Positions 32,261 to 53,002 of a stretch of 64,000 nt of DNA are shown piece after piece. The stretch comes from Thermoanaerobaculia bacterium (GTDB lineage Bacteria; Acidobacteriota; Thermoanaerobaculia; UBA5066). Position numbers and translations under genes: made by a program. Location of the stretch: the NCBI GenBank assembly GCA_963816185.1, contig CAWFJJ010000028.1, positions 128,001 to 192,000 on the forward strand, read 5' to 3'. Under the pieces are notes generated by a model. The model worked only from the letters and a program-made list of their open reading frames with translations, searched no databases and was not told the DNA's origin. Positions within the stretch are counted from its first letter, which is position 1, and each line of letters starts with the position of its first letter.

Positions 32261-37913
<5,653 letters not shown>

Positions 37914-38018
37914 GCGTGCGCGGCCGCTAGGCCTGTTTGATTCCTGAGACTGATGCGCAGGATCATAGCGGGTTTTCTTCGAAGGTAAATGCGGCCTCGG
38001 ATGAACCGCGATGGCGCC

Positions 38019-39356
38019 TCAGGCCCAGCCGGCCAGCGACTCGTCGAGGATCTTGAGAGCCTCGTCCACCTCGCCGGCGTTCACGACGAGCGGCGGCGAG
38101 ATGCGGATGACGTTGCCGTAGAGCCCGCCCTTGCCGATCAGGAGGCCGCGCTTCTTCGTCTCTTCGAACAGGCGCACGGCCTTTTCCGGCGCGGGCGTCC
38201 GGTCCTGAACGGTTTCGTCGGCCACGAGCTCGACGCCCTGCATGAGGCCCATGCCGCGCACGTCGCCGATCGTCTTCGGGTACTTCTTCTTGAGACCGTC
38301 GAGGCCGCCACGCAGGCGAGAGCCCATCTCGGCCGCGTGCTTCGGCGCGTCGATCTCCTCCATGACCTCGAGCGTCGCGTTCGCGGCGGCCGAGGAGATC
38401 GGGTTCCCGCCGAACGTCGAGATCGAGAGAGCCTTGAGCGAGTCCGCGACCTCCGGCGTCGCGATCGTGACCCCGAGCGGCATCCCGTTCGCGACGCCCT
38501 TGGCCATCGTCATGATCTCGGGCTCGACGTTCCAGTGCGAGATGCCGTACCAGGCACCGCCGGTGCGCCCGAAGCCCGTCTGCACCTCGTCGCAGATGAA
38601 GACGCCGCCGTATTTCCGGACGATCCCGACCGCGATCTCGAAGTACTCCTTCGGCGGCGTGATGAATCCGCCGACCCCCTGGATGGGCTCGGCGATGAAG
38701 CCCGCGATCCGGCCGGTCGTCGTCGTCTTGATCAGCTCTTCGAGGTCCTGGGCGCAGGCGATGCCGCAAGACGGGTACGTGAGCTTCAGCGGGCAGCGGT
38801 AGCAGTACGGCGAGGGCGCGTGCTTGATCGCGGCGATCTGCGTCGGCAGCGCGCGCCACGGTGCATGCGCGGTGAGCGATTGAGCGAGCATCGAGCGGCC
38901 CGAGTAGCCGTGGCGCAGCGCGACGATCTCCGTGCGGCCCGTGTAGACCTGCGCCATCATGACGGCGGTCTCGTCGGCCTCGGTGCCCGAAGACGTGAAG
39001 AACGATTTCCGGAGCCGCCCGGGCGTCAGCCGCGCGAGCTTTTCGGCGAGCTCGACGATGGGCAGAGTCGGATAGAGCGTCGAGACGTGGCCGAGCCGGT
39101 CCACCTGCGCCTTGATGGCGGCGTTCACCTTGTCGTTTGCGTGCCCGACGGAGATCGTCAGGATGCCGCCGAAAAAGTCGAGGTACGTCTTCCCGTCGGC
39201 GTCCCGCACGCGCATCCCCTTGCCGGATTCGAGGACGACGGACTCTTTGTAGTAGTTGGCCACCGACGGAAAGAGGTACTCCTTGTGCTTCGCCCGCACG
39301 TCGGCGGAAGAAAGAGCGGGAGAAGACGAAGGTCTTGCCTCGGAAGTGGGGTTCAT
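38019..39356 (-). CDS. Class III aminotransferase (beta-alanine aminotransferase, AGXT2/PYD4-like)
   Basis: YLDFFGGI, SGTEADE, AEPIQGVGG, DEVQTGFGRTG, TMAKG, DVRGMGLM; context in pyrimidine cluster. Confidence 0.88.
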   Translation of the reverse strand: MNPTSEARPSSSPALSSADVRAKHKEYLFPSVANYYKESVVLESGKGMRVRDADGKTYLDFFGGILTISVGHANDKVNAAIKAQVDRLGHVSTLYPTLPIVELAEKLARLTPGRLRKSFFTSSGTEADETAVMMAQVYTGRTEIVALRHGYSGRSMLAQSLTAHAPWRALPTQIAAIKHAPSPYCYRCPLKLTYPSCGIACAQDLEELIKTTTTGRIAGFIAEPIQGVGGFITPPKEYFEIAVGIVRKYGGVFICDEVQTGFGRTGGAWYGISHWNVEPEIMTMAKGVANGMPLGVTIATPEVADSLKALSISTFGGNPISSAAANATLEVMEEIDAPKHAAEMGSRLRGGLDGLKKKYPKTIGDVRGMGLMQGVELVADETVQDRTPAPEKAVRLFEETKKRGLLIGKGGLYGNVIRISPPLVVNAGEVDEALKILDESLAGWA

Positions 39357-47480: not shown

Positions 47481-48362
47481 TCAGTGCGCCGTCTCGCCGC
47501 CCCACTCGCGCGCGATCGCCCGATAGACGTCCTCGTCGAGCGCGTGCGCATGGGCAGGCTCGGGGAAGCGCCCTGTGCGGACGTCTTCGACGTAGGCGGC
47601 GAATGCCCGCGCCATCTCTTCGTGGAGGCTCGCATACTGCTTGACGAACTTCGGCGCGAAGCCGTCGGTCAGGCCGAGGAGGTCGTGCGTCACGAGGACC
47701 TGGCCATCGCATGCGGCGCCGGCGCCGATTCCGATCGTGGGGATCGAGAGGCGGCGCGTGATGAGGCCGGCGAGCCGGTCCGGGATCGCCTCGAGGACGA
47801 GCGCGTGACAGCCCGCATCCTCGAGGGCGTGCGCGTCCTCGACGAGGCTTCGCGCCGCGGCGGCCGACTTGCCCTGGGTCCTGAAGCCGCCGAGCTGGTT
47901 CACTTTCTGCGGCGTTAGGCCGATGTGGCCCACGACCGGGATTCCCGCGCCCACGAGCGCCCGGACCGCCGGCACGACCTCGCGACCGCCTTCCAGCTTC
48001 ACGGCGTTCATGCCGCCTTCCTTCAGGAATCGGCCCGCATTCCGCACGGCGTCGCCGACCGAGGCCTGGTACGAGAGAAACGGCATGTCGCCGACGAGAT
48101 GCGCGACCTTCGCGCCGCGCGCGACGGCTTTCGCGTGATGGAGCATCTCCTCCATCGTCACGGGCAGCGTGTTGTCGTACCCGAGGACGACCATTCCGAG
48201 CGAATCGCCCACGAGGATCGAGTCCACGCCTGCGAGGTCGAGGGCGCGGGCCGTGGGGAAGTCGTACGCGGTGAGCATCGTGATCGGCTCGCCGCGCTCC
48301 TTCTTCGCCCGGAGCGTGTGAAGAGTGATCTTTCGCTGGGGAGAGGGAGCTATCGTGGACAT
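47481..48362 (-). CDS. panB: 3-methyl-2-oxobutanoate hydroxymethyltransferase
   Basis: MLTAYD, LVGDSLG, DMPF, VKLEGG, GHIGLTPQ, GIGAG, DGQVLV. Confidence 0.96.
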   Translation of the reverse strand: MSTIAPSPQRKITLHTLRAKKERGEPITMLTAYDFPTARALDLAGVDSILVGDSLGMVVLGYDNTLPVTMEEMLHHAKAVARGAKVAHLVGDMPFLSYQASVGDAVRNAGRFLKEGGMNAVKLEGGREVVPAVRALVGAGIPVVGHIGLTPQKVNQLGGFRTQGKSAAAARSLVEDAHALEDAGCHALVLEAIPDRLAGLITRRLSIPTIGIGAGAACDGQVLVTHDLLGLTDGFAPKFVKQYASLHEEMARAFAAYVEDVRTGRFPEPAHAHALDEDVYRAIAREWGGETAH

Positions 48363-48383
48363 GGCTATCTTCTCCGTGGAAGT

Positions 48384-48448
48384 AAGACGCCTTTCGAAAA
48401 GATCTCGAGCAGCCGACGCGTCCGGGTCGCGTGACACGATCCCGGCGC
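48384..48448 (-). ncRNA. Candidate pan RNA motif-like leader upstream of panB
   Basis: Minus-strand hairpin GCG-CCGGG-(A)-UCGUG-UCA-CGCGA-CCCGG-(A)-CGC with two bulged A, then a second hairpin before the GGAG RBS. Confidence 0.45.
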
Positions 48449-48817
48449 AGAAACGATGATAGCCCCTGCACTATGCCCCGTCCACGAGCCGGGGTCGTAT
48501 TCTTCCTACGCCTGCCGGAATCGCGACCCGTCATGTCTTCTCGCCCTTCGAAGGAAGCATCATTCAAGTCATTTAGAATCAATTGTTTGAGTAAATCGCC
48601 TCCTCTGGCGATCTCTCCTTCTAAGAATCTTCCCTTCTTCCCCTCGCCTCATTAGGAAGCGAGCCACCGGTGCATGTACAGCATTCCGCTGCCCTGATGC
48701 ATCTTCGTCAGTCGATTTTTCTCTTGACATAGCTCCTTTCGTGAAACAATTCCGTCAGGTTCAGCTTGGGGTACCAGACCCGTGGTCCATGCGGGCGCGG
48801 TCCCTAGGGAGTCGTCC

Positions 48818-49444
48818 ATGGCAGCGTGGGACACGACGGAAGGCATGGGGCTGACGCCGGCTCTCGCCGGTGGTGGTTCGATGGCTGAAGCGTCGGTCCT
48901 GCGGGCCGTTCTCTCCGACGAGATTCCCGTCTCGGATGACGTCTCCTCCGAGGCCGCGGGCATCACGCCCGGCGAGTGGGACTGGACGGCGCTGAACAAC
49001 GTGCTCCGCCCGAAGCTCATCGGCCTCGCGGTGAGGAAGTACAACTTCAGCCACGAAGAGGCGGAAGACGCCGTCCAGACGGTCTACATGCGCGTTCTCG
49101 CACGCGATCCGCGCGTGAAAGACCCGATCGGCTACGTCAAGATCGCGTTCCTCAACACCTGCCTGAACATCGCGATGGCGAAAGAGCGCAGCGTCCAGCA
49201 GATGCCGGAGGAGATGGACGTGCCGGACCCGAAGTGCGAGCGCGTCACCGCGCGCCTCGAGGCCGTGCGCATGGTCAACAAGGCGATCCGCAGCGCCGGG
49301 CCGAAGTGCAAGCGCATCGTGCGGCTCTACTTCGGGCAGGAATACAGCCTGGCCGACATGACGAAGGCCACGGGCTACTCCAAGAAGACCGTCTGGAAGC
49401 GCATCTGGGGCTGCCTCGACAAGATGCGGAAGGTGCTCGCGTGA
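48818..49444 (+). CDS. ECF-type sigma-70 factor (start could be 48818 or 48881)
   Basis: Region 2 EEAEDAVQTVYMR...FLNTCLN and region 4 CKRIVRLYF..YSLADM..ATGYSKKTVWKRI..CLDKMR. Confidence 0.85.
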   Translation: MAAWDTTEGMGLTPALAGGGSMAEASVLRAVLSDEIPVSDDVSSEAAGITPGEWDWTALNNVLRPKLIGLAVRKYNFSHEEAEDAVQTVYMRVLARDPRVKDPIGYVKIAFLNTCLNIAMAKERSVQQMPEEMDVPDPKCERVTARLEAVRMVNKAIRSAGPKCKRIVRLYFGQEYSLADMTKATGYSKKTVWKRIWGCLDKMRKVLA

Positions 49445-50880
49445 GCGCAGAATTCAAGCCTGCCGCGTCTTCCTGCCCCGAGCAGTGGGAGCTTTTCGAG
49501 CTCGTGACCGAGGGCTCGACGGAGCTGAACGCGCATGTGAAAGCCCACGTCACGGCGGGCTGCCCGTCGTGCGGGAAGCACCTCGACGACATCCGCACGC
49601 TCTCGAGGGCGCGCGAGATGAAGGAAGAGTTCGACGCCTTCTTCGAAGAGCTGCCCCAGGACGACGCCCCGCCCACGGAGCGCGAGGAGTTTCTCCTCAA
49701 GTTCAAGAAGAAGAACCGCCCCGCCGACCGCCTCGGCCGCCTCGCCCACGACGGCCGCCAGCTCGCGGCCGAGATCGTGAAGGCGGTTTCGGAAGAAGGC
49801 CTCGAAAAGGCGAAAGAGCTGCTCGGGAAGATCGAAGCGGATCCGAGCCGCGGATACGCGTACCTGTACGCGTGCCAGCTGGCAATGCCGAAAACGTCCA
49901 GCAACCCGCCGATGTACGTCGAGTTTGCGAAGGCGATATCGGAAACGACCCGGAGCCTCCCGTACCTTAAGGACAAGGGACCCGCTCAGCCCGTCTGCCG
50001 CGAGCAGGTAGCCGGCGAGGCGGCGCTCTTGAAAGCAAACGCGCTGACCTACCTGGCGCTGTGCGCCGAGGCAATTGACGCAGCGCGAGAAGCTCGCCTG
50101 AGCTTTGTCGCGGCGGGTGAGGACAGTTTTGCGCTCGCCCTAGCGGACTACTTCGAGGGACTCGCGGTCACGTTCTCTGGTGATTTCGCTGTCGCGTGGC
50201 GGCTCCTGAAATCAGCTCGTTCTGAATTCAATCTTTATGGGCAAGAGAACTGGCAGGGGAGAGCTCATGCGGCGCTCGGACTCTTGGTTCTGGGCCGCGG
50301 GAAGTGCGCCTCGGCCCTACATTTCTTCGACGAGGCTCTTCGAGTACTTCACCCCGATCAGGACGGCACGGCCTACGCCGCAACTCTTGTGAATCGGGGC
50401 TATGCCTTGGTCAAGGTTGGTCGGTTGGATGCAGCGAAGGCGACGTATGCGCGCGCGCTTATGCACGCCCGTCGGTTCCAGATGAACCATCCTCTTCTCA
50501 CGATTCGCTTCGGCTTGGCCTCGATCGAACTGCTCCGGGGCAATGTCGTTCGGGCGCTCGGAGGATTCGAGAGGATGGCCCACGATGCCGCGGAGATGGG
50601 TTTCAACGAGCAAGTACTCGGCGCTCAGCTGCGGATCGCCGAGTGCTTGTCACGTCTCGGCCGTGGCGACGAAGTGGAGCGCCGCGTTCAAGAGATTCGT
50701 CAGTCCGCCTTCAAGGTTTCGCTCGAGAATGATCTGGCGTTCCGCGAGCTTTTCGAAAGCATCGATGAGGATCGAGCTTCCTCGGAGATGATCGCCTACA
50801 TCGCAGACTACTTCGAGGGCAGAAACCGCGGTGTTCGCACAGCCTACAAACCGTTCCGGCTGGTGGCGAACGGAAGTTGA
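49441..50880 (+). CDS. Zinc-finger anti-sigma-like domain fused to a soluble TPR-repeat domain (479 aa)
   Basis: GTGA overlap with sigma stop; C-x-HVTAGCPSC (HxxxxCxxC); TPR-like helices GRAHAALGLLVLGRG...FDEAL and ATLVNRGYALVKVGRLDAAKATYARAL; no TM segment. Confidence 0.8.
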   Translation: MSAEFKPAASSCPEQWELFELVTEGSTELNAHVKAHVTAGCPSCGKHLDDIRTLSRAREMKEEFDAFFEELPQDDAPPTEREEFLLKFKKKNRPADRLGRLAHDGRQLAAEIVKAVSEEGLEKAKELLGKIEADPSRGYAYLYACQLAMPKTSSNPPMYVEFAKAISETTRSLPYLKDKGPAQPVCREQVAGEAALLKANALTYLALCAEAIDAAREARLSFVAAGEDSFALALADYFEGLAVTFSGDFAVAWRLLKSARSEFNLYGQENWQGRAHAALGLLVLGRGKCASALHFFDEALRVLHPDQDGTAYAATLVNRGYALVKVGRLDAAKATYARALMHARRFQMNHPLLTIRFGLASIELLRGNVVRALGGFERMAHDAAEMGFNEQVLGAQLRIAECLSRLGRGDEVERRVQEIRQSAFKVSLENDLAFRELFESIDEDRASSEMIAYIADYFEGRNRGVRTAYKPFRLVANGS

Positions 50881-50957
50881 TCGTTCTGTAGACATCGTTC
50901 ATAGACAGGGGGCAGAGGTGCCAAGAAATCGGGTACCTCAAGAAAGTTCTTATCAGA

Positions 50958-51002
50958 AGGGGGTCAAACGTGTGCCCCCGTCTGTCCGTGTATATAGCCC
51001 AC
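50958..51002 (+). promoter_or_regulatory. Promoter-like element, copy 1 (upstream of peptide gene)
   Basis: AGGGGGTCAAA-N13-CTGTC-N7-ATAGCCCAC; 34/45 identical to copy 2. Confidence 0.55.
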
Positions 51003-51069
51003 AGCTGAACAATCGCAGCACTAACCAATTGTTGGCAACTTGGTAACCCAGGTAGGCCAGGGAGGACGT

Positions 51070-51201
51070 ATGGATTTCGACTTCGGCTTCGGTTCGTTCT
51101 TGTATTTCATTGACTGGTTTGGGTTTGGCAGCTCAGCGGAAAGCGTCTCGACGACGACTATCGGCGGTAACAAGGTCTCCACGACGACTATCGGCGGCTG
51201 A
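51070..51201 (+). CDS. 43-aa peptide MDFDFGFGSFLYFIDWFGFGSSAESVSTTTIGGNKVSTTTIGG (putative signalling or precursor peptide), absent from ORF track
   Basis: GGGAGG RBS; duplicated 24-bp unit differing only at synonymous third positions; followed by a terminator-like hairpin. Confidence 0.78.
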   Translation: MDFDFGFGSFLYFIDWFGFGSSAESVSTTTIGGNKVSTTTIGG

Positions 51202-51261
51202 CAACTAACTCCCAATAGCTGCCCAACAGGCTGGCTTGACTGGCTCTGTGTTAGGTGTGTT

Positions 51262-51283
51262 TGCGCGTGAAAACGCGTGTTTT
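51262..51283 (+). terminator. Putative intrinsic terminator after peptide gene
   Basis: TGCGCGT-GAAA-ACGCGTG stem-loop followed by TTTT. Confidence 0.55.
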
Positions 51284-51338
51284 CGTGTTCTTGGGTAAGA
51301 TTTGCATATGAATTGGGTGTCAAAAATATTTTCTTGGG

Positions 51339-51383
51339 AGGGGGTCAAAGGCGCGCCCCTGGCTGTCTCTACTAATAGCCCAC
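51339..51383 (+). promoter_or_regulatory. Promoter-like element, copy 2
   Basis: Same conserved blocks and spacing as copy 1, 381 bp downstream. Confidence 0.55.
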
Positions 51384-51484
51384 CCTTAGGGCGCCCTCAA
51401 GCAATTTCAGATCGTTAATCCAGGAAGTGAACCTCTGGCTCACCTTGGTCGGTAACGTCGGCTCTGAGGCGAGTGTGTTCGCCC

Positions 51485-51868
51485 TCACCCCGCGTACTGC
51501 GCGATGCCGTTTCCGAATGACCAGTTCTCCTTGGGGACCTCGACGAGGTTCACGAGGACGTCTTCCTTCCGCATGCCGGGGTTCTTCGCGAGGTTCTCCG
51601 CGATCCGGGCGTAGAAGGCCTTCTTCATCTCGAGGGTCCGGCCCAGGTTCAGAGTGACCTCGATGAAGACGACGTCGTCGGTGCGTTTGACGCCGAGGTA
51701 ACCGGCGTCGTAGATGAGGCCGCCGGCGGGGTGCTCTGTGATGACCTGGAAGCGGTCGTCGGCGGGGACGTTGATCGTCGCGAGCATCGCGTCGAAGACG
51801 CCGTCGGCGATGGCCTTGATGTAAGCCGGTGGCTTACCCGCGCGAAGGGAGATGTGGACGAGCGGCAT
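51485..51868 (-). CDS. Tautomerase family protein
   Basis: N-terminal Pro after Met (MPLVHISL), DDRFQVI, GRTLEMKK, ENWSFGNG. Confidence 0.9.
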   Translation of the reverse strand: MPLVHISLRAGKPPAYIKAIADGVFDAMLATINVPADDRFQVITEHPAGGLIYDAGYLGVKRTDDVVFIEVTLNLGRTLEMKKAFYARIAENLAKNPGMRKEDVLVNLVEVPKENWSFGNGIAQYAG

Positions 51869-51915
51869 GGGGCCTCCTGTGGCCCGAACGTTACCGCTCC
51901 CGGGCGCGCCGCGCC

Positions 51916-52317
51916 TCAGTCTTCTATCAACTTATGCCCCGCGAGCGTGAGCGCCGCGATCGCCTCGTTCAGGGAAGTCTTCTTGACGAGGATGTAATCC
52001 GTGTCGAACGTCGAGACCGCGAAGAGGCTGATTTTTGCATCGGCAAGCGGCTTTGCGACGGAAACGAGGACCCCTACGACATCGAGCGGGAACGGGCCGT
52101 GGAGCTTCAGGAGGGCCCAGCCGCGCGCGACCCGCAGGTCGAAGCCGTCGAGGTTCGGCGGGAGGCGCCGCTCGTCGCAGACGATCGACAGCTCGTCGGC
52201 CGTCCGGGTGATCGACGTGAACGTCTTGCCGGCCCATGTCGGAAGGGGAGCCTTCGCAGACAGGCGGCAGATGGCGTACGTGCCGGGAATCACGGAGAAG
52301 CGCTGTCCCGGTTTCAT
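51916..52317 (-). CDS. ACT domain protein (GATS/CASTOR-like)
   Basis: SITRTADELSIVC, GPFPLDVVGVL, FAVSTFDTDYILVK. Confidence 0.88.
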   Translation of the reverse strand: MKPGQRFSVIPGTYAICRLSAKAPLPTWAGKTFTSITRTADELSIVCDERRLPPNLDGFDLRVARGWALLKLHGPFPLDVVGVLVSVAKPLADAKISLFAVSTFDTDYILVKKTSLNEAIAALTLAGHKLIED

Positions 52318-52329
52318 CTCGGCAAGATC

Positions 52330-52764
52330 TCAGGGCGATGCGAAGGGGTTGCGGATGCGCAACGCTCCGAAGGCCTGCCCGGTGTTGAGGTCTTCCGACC
52401 AGATCGTCCGGCAGCCTAGCCGGCGGGCGCTCTGAAGAATGAGGGCATCCCACAGGGAAATGCGTTTGCGTCGATGCAAGTCGATGGCCGCGAGGACGTC
52501 CGCTCGAACGGGCTCGTGAAGAATCCAGTGCGAGAGGTCTTCGATGAGCGCGGCGGCTCCCGCCGCCGGCATCGGCCTCGAGACCTTGCGGGTGATCGTG
52601 ACGAAGAGCTCCTGCAAGACCTGAAGGCTGAGACAGCCGCGCCCGGAGCGCCACAGACCGGCCACGAGCTCTCGCGCCTGCGCTGCTTTCGCCCCCGCGC
52701 TTGCGTCGTACGCGTAGACCAGGACGTTCGTATCGACGAACTCCCGGGCCGGCTCAGCGCTCAT
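52330..52764 (-). CDS. PIN-domain toxin (VapC-like)
   Basis: FVDTNVLVY, QVLQEL, SLWDALI, WSEDL. Confidence 0.9.
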   Translation of the reverse strand: MSAEPAREFVDTNVLVYAYDASAGAKAAQARELVAGLWRSGRGCLSLQVLQELFVTITRKVSRPMPAAGAAALIEDLSHWILHEPVRADVLAAIDLHRRKRISLWDALILQSARRLGCRTIWSEDLNTGQAFGALRIRNPFASP

Positions 52765-53002
52765 GGAGCGAGTCGCGGGTCCACATGGCCTGACCCCGGG
52801 TTCCCAGATTCACGGGGCGTGTGAGCCGCGCGAGCGCCCGCTCGCGAGCCGCGGCGTAAGCGTCCTCGCGCTCGACGATGTCTTCCAGCATGCCAGCGAG
52901 AAGCGCCGAGACGGAGGTCTGCCGTTCGACGGCGAGGATCTTCACCTTTCTCAGCACGGGCTTTGGAAGCGCGAGCGTGATGTTCTGAATGACCGCCTTC
53001 AC
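52754..53002 (-). CDS. CopG/RHH-type antitoxin (VapB-like)
   Basis: NITLALP..VLRKVKILA..TSVSALL; WTRDSLHER; overlaps toxin start. Confidence 0.8.
   Translation of the reverse strand: MKAVIQNITLALPKPVLRKVKILAVERQTSVSALLAGMLEDIVEREDAYAAARERALARLTRPVNLGTRGQAMWTRDSLHER

Follow-up and report, generated by a model that had tools for sequence, protein, structure and literature searches.

An ECF sigma factor, a TPR partner protein and a small peptide gene in Thermoanaerobaculia look like a peptide signalling switch of undescribed design

The locus considered here lies at positions 48818-51383 of a 64,000-nucleotide stretch of DNA from a Thermoanaerobaculia bacterium of the phylum Acidobacteriota (hereafter the window). 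As read from the list of open reading frames (ORFs) and the sequence of the window, it comprises three genes on the + strand, in the order of a 208-aa sigma factor of the extracytoplasmic function (ECF) type, a 479-aa partner protein with a Cys/His domain followed by tetratricopeptide repeats (TPR), and a 43-aa ORF. This layout is real and far above chance. Taken together with its relatives, the triad looks like a peptide signalling switch of undescribed design. The features of the module are as follows, with RBS for ribosome-binding site, UTR for untranslated region, ZAS for zinc anti-sigma and AF2 for AlphaFold2.

48818..49444, + strand: sigma gene, ATG at 48818 and stop ending at 49444; divergent ECF-type (group 4), 208 aa
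within 48818..49444, + strand: acidic N-terminal extension of the sigma factor, ~60 aa
49441..50880, + strand: partner gene, GTG start, with a 4-nt GTGA overlap with the sigma stop
49441..49722, + strand: N-terminal domain of the partner, residues 1-94, with four helices and a Cys/His motif; putative ZAS-like
49723..50880, + strand: predicted TPR superhelix, residues 95-476, plus stop codon (AF2 model, Foldseek)
nt 49879-50868, + strand: hypervariable allelic TPR core, residues ~147-476 (identity drop, entropy)
50959..50987, + strand: candidate two-box ECF-like promoter, GGGGGTCAAA at 50959-50968, a 13-nt spacer and CTGTCC at 50982-50987
50988..51069, + strand: 5' leader, with the RBS GGGAGGA at 51060-51066
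51070..51201, + strand: 43-aa pro-peptide gene, ATG at 51070, 190 nt after the partner gene, with two C-terminal VSTTTIGG units
51145-51168 and 51175-51198, + strand: the VSTTTIGG units, at the C-terminal end of the 43-aa ORF
51202..51289, + strand: 3' UTR, with a CAACTAA..CCCAATA..CCAA block and a GGCTGG/CCAGCC-type hairpin
51262-51289, + strand: terminator-like hairpin and T run (terminator scan)
51340..51485, + strand: second promoter-box copy, GGGGGTCAAA at 51340-51349 and CTGTCT at 51363-51368, followed by ~100 nt without ORF

Judged by its profile matches, the sigma factor is a divergent ECF member at the threshold of the curated models. TIGR02937 (sigma70-ECF) aligns with it over model positions 18-164 of 165 (E 4.5e-11; 42.7 bits, cut-off 42.9), the Pfam models of sigma region 2 and region 4 give 19 and 15.3 bits, both under their cut-offs, and a profile built from 14 sigma relatives finds its best matches in the PDB among the ECF sigmas SigE, CnrH and RpoE (E 5.5e-4 to 3e-3). 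Orthologues of the module are referred to below as group A, and its paralogues as groups B, C and D. The sigma protein is 82-98% identical across 19 orthologous loci, with the N-terminus MAAWD kept in orthologues, and the 4-nt overlap with the partner gene recurs in 20/20 group-A loci.

The N-terminal part of the partner protein carries four helices in the AF2 model (residues 15-24, 31-38, 42-69 and 78-87) and a Cys/His motif with the spacing C12-x23-H36-x4-C41-x2-C44, in which the first position is C or H and each of H36, C41 and C44 has a conservation of 90% or more across 114 relatives. ZAS domains are characterised by H/C-x23-26-H-x3-C-x2-C in an N-terminal helical bundle; groups A and B have one extra residue between H and C, and paralogues C and D have the canonical H-x3-C-x2-C. 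Residues 1-94 are regarded as a putative ZAS-like domain. Since the Pfam model zf-HC2 stays below significance for the partner protein (the module D protein reaches 15.5 bits, with a cut-off of 22.2), the name is an assignment at the level of the motif. A pairing of this domain with the sigma factor is suggested by the 4-nt gene overlap and by one group-B variant in which sigma region 4 and the Cys/His domain have both been lost.

No transmembrane segment was found in the partner protein, whose 19-residue Kyte-Doolittle maximum is 1.35, and its repeat region matches TPR_12 of Pfam with 30.4 bits (cut-off 30.1). The AF2 model, computed from a 114-row alignment, is all-helical with a pLDDT of 88.3, exceeding 90 over most of residues 100-470, and shows a continuous TPR superhelix from residue ~95 to 476. 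The preliminary description of this locus, which had seen an ECF sigma coupled through GTGA to a soluble protein with an N-terminal HxxxxCxxC motif and a long TPR region, was borne out in each of these respects.

With this model, Foldseek returned LGN/Pins-peptide complexes as the best matches (E 6e-7), followed by the Rap-Phr complexes 8rst, 4gyo and 6t46 (E 4e-5 to 6.5e-5; template-modelling (TM) score normalised to the target 0.57-0.63); across both kinds of complex the target-normalised TM was 0.55-0.68. The modelled TPR fold thus most closely resembles those of proteins that bind a peptide in their groove, Rap-Phr complexes among them. Sequence matches to RapJ and NprR (E ~1e-4 across some 90-110 residues) do not go beyond what TPR proteins have in common, and Pfam and NCBIfam searches gave no helix-turn-helix (HTH) family match in the partner protein. 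A co-fold of TPR residues 95-479 (alignment input) with the 43-aa peptide had a score of 0.01 (mark 0.32), which speaks neither for nor against binding. Sequence entropy is 1.10 bits in the TPR core versus 0.68-0.70 upstream. When entropy was analysed helix by helix, the spacing of the variable positions was periodic, as for a surface, in the first and the second helix of the repeats alike.

The named relatives of the partner protein come, with the exception of locus L104, from metagenome-assembled Thermoanaerobaculia or Acidobacteriota, where they are annotated as 'hypothetical' or 'TPR repeat protein'. L104, on a 5.3-kb contig of a metagenome-assembled genome (MAG) titled Acidithiobacillales, is the sole TPR relative from a record not named Acidobacteriota or Thermoanaerobaculia; it is 37% identical, no small ORF was found downstream on its 5.3-kb contig, and mis-binning or gene transfer may account for it.

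The third gene encodes the 43-aa pro-peptide MDFDFGFGSFLYFIDWFGFGSSAESVSTTTIGGNKVSTTTIGG, for which neither Pfam nor NCBIfam has a family. Its N-terminal part is hydrophobic and acidic and has no basic residues, and it ends in the two VSTTTIGG units. The nucleotide repeats that encode these units are 96% identical, and the two differences within them are both synonymous. The same pattern is found more widely: among tandem units within 15 genes, 110 synonymous codon differences were counted versus 17 non-synonymous ones, most of the latter in the spacer positions of 10-aa periods, and in one example three INAGPIG units differ at 9 codons, every one of them silent. Such an excess of synonymous differences would be surprising if the peptide were not made and the identity of its units not selected; by this codon evidence, the small ORF is translated and under selection. 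The preliminary description had derived the mature peptide from VSTTTIGG. Its C-terminal origin is retained, and a unit of about 7-8 residues from the extreme C-terminus now appears more likely, since 7 aa is the commonest length of the tandem units.

Neither Sec nor Tat nor lipoprotein signals were detected in the pro-peptides. Many peptides carry Cys pairs and many others have no Cys. Two specific processing schemes were considered and dropped: a double-glycine leader, suggested by GG after 14-18 residues in some peptides, fails as a general rule because peptides of 19-21 aa have no such site, and a thiolactone (agr-like) reading of the Cys residues fails because many peptides lack them. The genome encodes Opp/Dpp-type binding proteins and C39-peptidase ATP-binding cassette exporters, unlinked to the module, which is permissive only. 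Two or three matches to SBP_bac_5, a family of oligopeptide- and dipeptide-binding proteins, the best with 184.7 bits, lie in the window itself at ~32510-35117 on the - strand (G000:C28:160510-163117), ~14 kb upstream of the module.

The module is conserved throughout the genus. An orthologue of the partner is present in 28/28 other genomes, and all 18 loci with downstream DNA have the promoter-like element, a leader of ~70 nt, an RBS, a small variable ORF and a 3' UTR with a terminator. A larger set of 31 unique A modules was pooled from genomes, a named genome collection and metagenomes, with duplicates removed and at least 330 nt of downstream DNA. In all 31 a small ORF preceded by an RBS starts 178-190 nt past the TPR stop, so that the synteny on which the preliminary description had hinged, with an ECF gene upstream and a small ORF downstream, held in every orthologous module, and it held also in 20/20 paralogous loci (see below). 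The RBS is of the AGGAGGAC type and lies 4-7 nt ahead of the start codon in all loci. The ORFs encode 19-47 aa, except at L095, where the first call has 10 aa and a second candidate has 20 aa and ends in GPIGG. Of the A-module peptides, 27/31 end in P-[IV]-x0-2 or TIGG, and of the remaining four, one ends in TSIGG, one has probably shifted frame, and two run on for two residues beyond PIAG or PIGG. In control runs the ORF caller found an ORF in 7/86 reverse complements and 204/1720 shuffled sequences, and the C-terminal motif in 1/86 and 7/1720, respectively. Four loci from long-read MAGs (L094, L097, L127 and L131) have TPR genes that match in pieces and peptide ORFs that overrun the P-I-G or shift frame; they are perhaps pseudogenes or reflect homopolymer errors in assembly.

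The preliminary description had given the peptide gene its own RBS and terminator, both of which were recovered (GGGAGGA at 51060-51066; hairpin at 51262-51289), and a duplicated promoter-like element. A 60-nt element does indeed occur twice, at 50943-51002 and 51324-51383, with 70% identity over the 60 nt, and so the duplication stands; the second copy, however, has no ORF behind it. The core pattern of the element matches twice in the window versus 0 in 100 shuffles, and the 5.09-Mb genome has no matches beyond these two. Of 32 unique A modules, 30 have the boxes, which in 29 of these 30 lie 78-81 nt past the TPR stop. At fixed spacing and with a variable spacer sequence, groups A and B have GGGGGTCAAA[AG]-N12/13-CTGTC[CT], and group C has GGTTGAAAAC...CCGTCT. 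In this genome the A/B pattern has two matches at module A, one at module B and one elsewhere, and the C pattern matches module C and one other site. In five further genomes, 11/11 pattern matches lie within 500 nt downstream of the TPR gene of a module, and a reversed-pattern control gave 0. Together, these distributions make the two-box motif look like a dedicated promoter that is almost exclusive to these peptide genes, which fits the feedback on the peptide promoter proposed earlier. In group B the TPR gene ends in a strong terminator immediately ahead of the peptide gene, which would therefore need a promoter of its own. The putative recognition helix of sigma region 4 reads KTVWKRI in groups A and B and PAVWKRI in group C, a difference that parallels that of the -35 boxes, with three groups to compare. 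ECF factors recognise two-box promoters with an AAC-type -35 and a CGT/GTC-type -10 and are often autoregulated. The box motif was not found upstream of the sigma gene itself, and a scan for sigma-70 promoters, which does not cover ECF-type promoters, gave 0 sites in 48500-51600. A hairpin reading of the element (GGGGG...CCCCC) was rejected, as second copies keep the boxes and lose the complementary arm.

Downstream of the boxes, the UTRs of the peptide mRNA (51003-51069 and 51202-51260) are more conserved than its coding part. The 3' UTR is kept in 18 loci, and a terminator-like pattern is present in 24/32 unique A modules. In both UTRs there are ACCAATTG-like blocks, and the 3' UTR hairpin shows, by eye, compensatory changes. 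RNAalifold found no consensus fold in the 5' UTR and the second unit (0.0 kcal) and just two short helices in the 3' UTRs, the alignments being poor in each case. The second box pair follows ~145 nt past the peptide stop in 16/29 unique A modules. The unit that it heads runs into the 3' end of a convergent tautomerase gene; across orthologous loci its downstream part is weakly conserved and has no conserved ORF, and its 3' end resembles the 3' UTR of the peptide gene. Either a non-coding RNA made under ECF control or what is left of a duplicated peptide gene could account for it.

The conserved UTR blocks, and an ORF-less second unit with the same promoter, would also suit a transcript that acts as a small regulatory RNA with an incidental ORF. 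A dual-function RNA is conceivable, but an incidental ORF is very improbable, since the 110 synonymous and 17 non-synonymous differences between repeat units, an ORF that is open in 31/31 modules and a strong RBS in all of them argue against it, as does the result from Rfam, which gave zero matches on 48000-52500 at E up to 1.

Contigs from metatranscriptomes, 88-95% like the conserved parts, were found in four runs of four studies and belong to relatives, not to this organism. They span the sigma gene and the partner gene up to nt ~570, and also both copies of the promoter element, the first along with the 5' leader; divergence sets in at the onset of the variable parts. These contigs were not used as evidence for expression, as they give no start, strand or level and DNA may be present in the libraries.

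This genome has two further modules built in this way, with TPR proteins ~33% identical to the partner, and a fourth kind, module D, occurs in other genomes of the genus. Their positions are as follows.

G000:C25 ~549900-551800 (locus L023, 3750-5800), - strand: module B, region-2-only sigma gene, TPR gene, boxes and peptide gene
G000:C5 ~37100-39250 (locus L024), - strand: module C, ECF gene, TPR gene split over two frames, peptide gene
L025 8423-10798, L026 3586-5814, L027 1142-3370 and L028 4151-6424: module D, in other genomes of the genus

Genus-wide, 20/20 paralogous loci keep this layout, with a sigma gene before and a small ORF after the TPR gene. Their peptides end in PIGG, PIG, PIS, PIN, PIQG, PIPG, PVGG or PIGP, many with 2-4 tandem 7-aa units, and the peptides of all groups share P-I/V-G(G)-like endings. 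In other genera of the family there are candidates ending in PAGG, VPLG and three AGGTVPVG units, and weaker candidates occur in a sister family. In module B the TPR protein of 418-433 aa has no Cys/His domain, the boxes read GGGGGTCAAA...CTGTCC, and three ASVGPIG units close the 51-aa peptide. Half of the group-B loci, that of this genome included, have such a TPR protein without the Cys/His domain behind a sigma gene trimmed to region 2; in these variants the two parts that would be expected to touch were lost together, while TPR, peptide and promoter persist. After the B peptide gene, 10/10 B loci examined encode a conserved 136-aa protein of no known family, and some also a weakly AurF-like protein. 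Module C has the motif GGGCGAAAAC...CCGTCT and a 37-aa peptide ending in KPIGG; the split of its TPR gene is a frameshift or an assembly error, and in 4/4 loci of its subtype a membrane histidine-kinase gene (HisKA and HATPase_c) follows directly.

Module D consists of a second ECF gene and a protein of 742-790 aa and lies directly beside module A in some genomes. The protein combines the canonical H-x3-C-x2-C, an extra helical region of ~360 residues and a TPR core, and no small ORF lies downstream in any of the four copies (L025-L028). With A-type alleles from other species the D cores share up to 83% identity, versus 53-68% among themselves, and in 3/4 genomes the closest A allele lies outside the genome of the D core. 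Because these cores match foreign A alleles, module D fits a set of orphan receptors sensing foreign peptides, which favours signals between cells.

The variability of the partner gene is confined and mosaic. The partner protein is 57-90% identical across orthologous loci. Between L007 and L145, nucleotide identity is 91-100% through the sigma gene and the first ~440 nt of the partner gene, drops to 48-74% between ~nt 440 and ~nt 1430, and is again 100% at the gene end and 90% at the promoter; the locus of the window compared with L139 and L009 has the same breakpoint near nt 440. In locus pairs with a synonymous distance (dS) of 0.06-0.15 in the sigma gene, the TPR domain has a dS of 0.90-1.74 and a non-synonymous distance (dN) of 0.21-0.30, and some pairs with more distant sigmas have a near-identical TPR domain (dN 0.04). 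The rows of L151 in the table of these distances showed impossible values (nan or about 3) owing to faulty extraction of its DNA and were disregarded, and L151 was counted among the 22 loci of the Mantel tests below. As the rates of sigma gene and TPR domain disagree within locus pairs, old alleles of the TPR core have been shuffled among lineages.

The peptide end follows these alleles. In a partial Mantel test over 22 loci, the last 8 peptide residues were correlated with the TPR domain given the third positions of the sigma gene (r = 0.29, p = 0.0004), whereas the reverse partial of peptide and sigma given the TPR domain gave r = 0.04, p = 0.31, and the peptide end versus the Cys/His domain gave r = 0.12, p = 0.18. 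Clustering of 31 unique TPR cores at 15% distance gave at least 20 clusters, and the last 8 residues are 0.60 identical within clusters (13 pairs) versus 0.37 between them (452 pairs). One cluster holds pro-peptides of 21, 41 and 47 aa that have only ...GPIAG in common, another combines single-unit and triple-unit peptides that share INA[GT]PIG, and the endings found across leader formats are GPIAG, INA[GT]PIG, VSTT[ST]IGG, MPVQG and PIVG. The co-variation of peptide and TPR region that the preliminary description had proposed as a test was thus recovered by the correlation and by the allele clusters. Judged by sequence, TPR cores and peptide C-termini form old, recombining allele pairs (pherotypes).

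Such co-variation might also arise if the ligand of the TPR domain were not the peptide but, for example, a partner protein or a factor from phage or host in an arms race, and the peptide gene, which lies 190 nt past the TPR stop, hitch-hiked by linkage. Most TPR domains are binders of proteins, and the co-fold of TPR and peptide provided nothing usable. However, the promoter and UTR DNA between the two variable segments is itself conserved (84-100% identity between L007 and L145), so that recombination could uncouple them, and yet the peptide C-terminus follows the TPR core across leader formats; moreover, the triad is kept in three paralogue groups. We therefore consider hitch-hiking quite improbable.

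Another interpretation is that the peptide is an output. The ECF factor would answer some other cue and induce a secreted or membrane-active peptide, bacteriocin-like or the precursor of a ribosomally synthesised and post-translationally modified peptide with its enzymes encoded elsewhere, and the TPR protein would be an immunity or chaperone partner or bind another protein. Strong promoter matches found only at peptide genes, the hydrophobic and aromatic N-terminus, the Cys pairs of many peptides, an evolution as fast as is typical also of conflict systems, and the 136-aa and sometimes weakly AurF-like proteins encoded after the peptide gene of paralogue B would all be in keeping with such a role. 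However, the ORF list of the window has no modifying enzyme gene adjoining module A, and a selected 7-aa repeat with a P-I-G end, common to paralogues only ~33% identical in the receptor, is unlike known bacteriocins. In addition, the match of TPR-core alleles to the last ~7 residues would still require an interaction of TPR and peptide. A peptide serving as output is thus unlikely.

The reading that we rate as somewhat probable is that a heptapeptide released from the pro-peptide becomes the ligand of the TPR anti-sigma and in this way gates the ECF sigma that transcribes the peptide gene. The Cys/His domain of the 479-aa soluble protein would hold the sigma factor, and the TPR superhelix would bind the C-terminal ~7-8-residue unit or units of the pro-peptide, as co-variation and fold suggest, with groove contacts perhaps made through the conserved P-I-G(G) end of the heptapeptide. 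Binding would shift the amount of free sigma, in either direction. From the distribution of the motif, the sigma factor would transcribe the peptide gene from GGGGGTCAAA-N13-CTGTCC in an autoregulatory loop, and in groups A-C each sigma would read the promoter of its own peptide gene. The most likely route for the peptide would be export, processing and re-import, as in RRNPP or Rgg/SHP systems; with pro-peptides that have no Sec-type signal, export is a conjecture.

The same binding and gating could instead work within one cell, with a peptide that stays inside and an intracellular feedback that acts as a bistable or timing device. The lack of Sec, Tat and lipoprotein signals would agree with this, as would the confinement of the promoter motif to peptide genes and the absence of exporter, protease and importer genes from module A in the ORF list of the window. 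Nevertheless, such a cell-autonomous switch offers no obvious reason for old, recombining allele pairs common to several species, and it leaves unexplained both the orphan receptors, with cores that match peptide-paired alleles found in other species, and the identical tandem heptapeptides under purifying selection, which suggest several small processed products. We regard it as not very likely. True cell-cell signalling by the peptide is in our view a serious possibility, held with slightly less than even confidence.

Several points weigh against a peptide-gated TPR anti-sigma. The sigma factor is marginally under the curated ECF cut-off (42.7 vs 42.9 bits), zf-HC2 is non-significant, and the motif of the partner is H-x4-C-x2-C where the canonical one is H-x3-C-x2-C. 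The pro-peptide has no Sec-type signal, an acidic N-terminus and a 19-residue hydropathy maximum of 0.9. Binding of the peptide by the TPR domain, export and sigma release are steps that we infer. As the peptide gene adjoins the 3' end of the TPR gene, linkage could yield part of the co-variation, and because the loci are related the Mantel p-values overstate. The strict motif occurs essentially only at peptide genes, which would leave, oddly, a loop without visible regulon or output. Its spacing from T[CG]AAA to C[CT]GTC is 13-14 nt, 1-3 nt below that of known ECF promoters, and the contigs from RNA libraries of relatives span the promoter element itself, so that they show no start downstream of it.

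The surroundings of the module are ordinary. By our reading of the translations, a pantothenate gene lies upstream, and the convergent tautomerase gene and an ACT-domain gene follow downstream on the opposite strand. Further on, at 52330-53002 on the - strand, a PIN-domain protein (52330-52764) overlaps a ribbon-helix-helix-like protein (52754-53002), forming a VapBC-type toxin-antitoxin pair.

Peptide signalling through cytoplasmic TPR proteins is regarded as a speciality of Bacillota and mobile elements, ECF sigmas are seen mainly as stress transducers, and the Acidobacteriota are among the most abundant and least tractable soil phyla. If the proposed switch is real, peptide communication reaches diderm bacteria, and ECF/anti-sigma pairs gain a new class of input, a small peptide ligand bound in the cytoplasm. 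It would also provide compact, naturally orthogonal sets of sigma, anti-sigma and peptide for synthetic biology, given at least 20 TPR-core allele clusters, and the hypothesis is open to synthetic genes and synthetic heptapeptides without cultivation of the organism. It is possible, though we lean slightly to the other side, that uncultured soil Thermoanaerobaculia have the first peptide quorum sensing of a diderm phylum to use a cytoplasmic receptor, and the first to act via an anti-sigma and an ECF factor, with unmodified, often tandem heptapeptides, hypervariable TPR anti-sigmas, several orthogonal channels per genome, pherotype cassettes exchanged between species, and eavesdropping by module D.

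Among known systems, the ZAS pairs RsrA/SigR and ChrR/RpoE are similar in their co-transcribed, overlapping sigma and anti-sigma genes, their soluble partner and its N-terminal helical H/C...H-x3(4)-C-x2-C. Known ZAS proteins sense redox or singlet-oxygen stress via the zinc site, whereas here a TPR superhelix of ~380 residues is fused to the Cys/His domain and a cognate peptide gene lies behind. The ECF reclassification, in the sections of PMC7826278 covered, mentions TPR only where they extend the C-terminus of ECF42 sigmas and where ECF267 has them in a FecR-like anti-sigma. No module of ECF, anti-sigma-TPR and peptide appeared in the portions of the literature covered, including those of PMC7826278, PMC8999054, PMC10075063 and PMC9765709; the supplementary ECF tables, which lie outside these portions, may list the sigma group.

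The RRNPP(A) systems of Bacillota and their phages and plasmids (Rap-Phr, NprR-NprX, PlcR-PapR, PrgX and AimR-AimP) likewise place a soluble TPR-type receptor beside a short pro-peptide gene, a trait that is found here in 31/31 A modules and 20/20 paralogous loci. Their mature signal is a 5-8-mer from the C-terminal part, as proposed here, and some Rap-Phr pro-peptides carry tandem pheromone copies according to excerpts of PMC11343458. Their output, however, is an HTH or phosphatase domain, whereas here it would be an anti-sigma-like Cys/His domain and an ECF sigma, in a diderm of the Acidobacteriota and with a pro-peptide that has no Sec-type signal. In the available text of two RRNPP surveys (PMC10075063 and PMC9765709) the words 'sigma' and 'Acidobacteria' are absent, and 'Gram-negative' occurs only in one reference list. 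As it has no HTH or phosphatase output and no specific homology, the module is not filed as a member of RRNPP(A), but it may work like one.

In its proposed mode of working, the module comes especially close to Rgg/SHP. In Rgg/SHP and ComR/ComS of streptococci, as here, a short hydrophobic pro-peptide without a classical signal is encoded beside the receptor gene. According to excerpts of PMC3150281, Rgg drives the SHP pheromone gene, Opp and the Eep protease are required, and the active C-terminal 8 residues of SHP2 and SHP3 are DI[I/L]IIVGG, with a Gly-Gly end. In contrast to the present module, Rgg is a DNA-binding repeat protein of Bacillota, whereas the receptor here would act by sigma sequestration; in addition, the N-termini of Rgg/SHP pro-peptides are basic, whereas here they are acidic and tandem heptapeptide units are frequent. 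The mosaic architecture is like that of agr, comQXPA and comCDE. In those pherotype loci, hypervariable segments of receptor and signal lie in conserved flanks, and the allele lineages are much older than the flanks and have been shuffled. The receptors of agr, comQXPA and comCDE are membrane histidine kinases for extracellular peptides, whereas the variable part of the module described here is the core of a putatively peptide-binding, cytoplasmic TPR protein.

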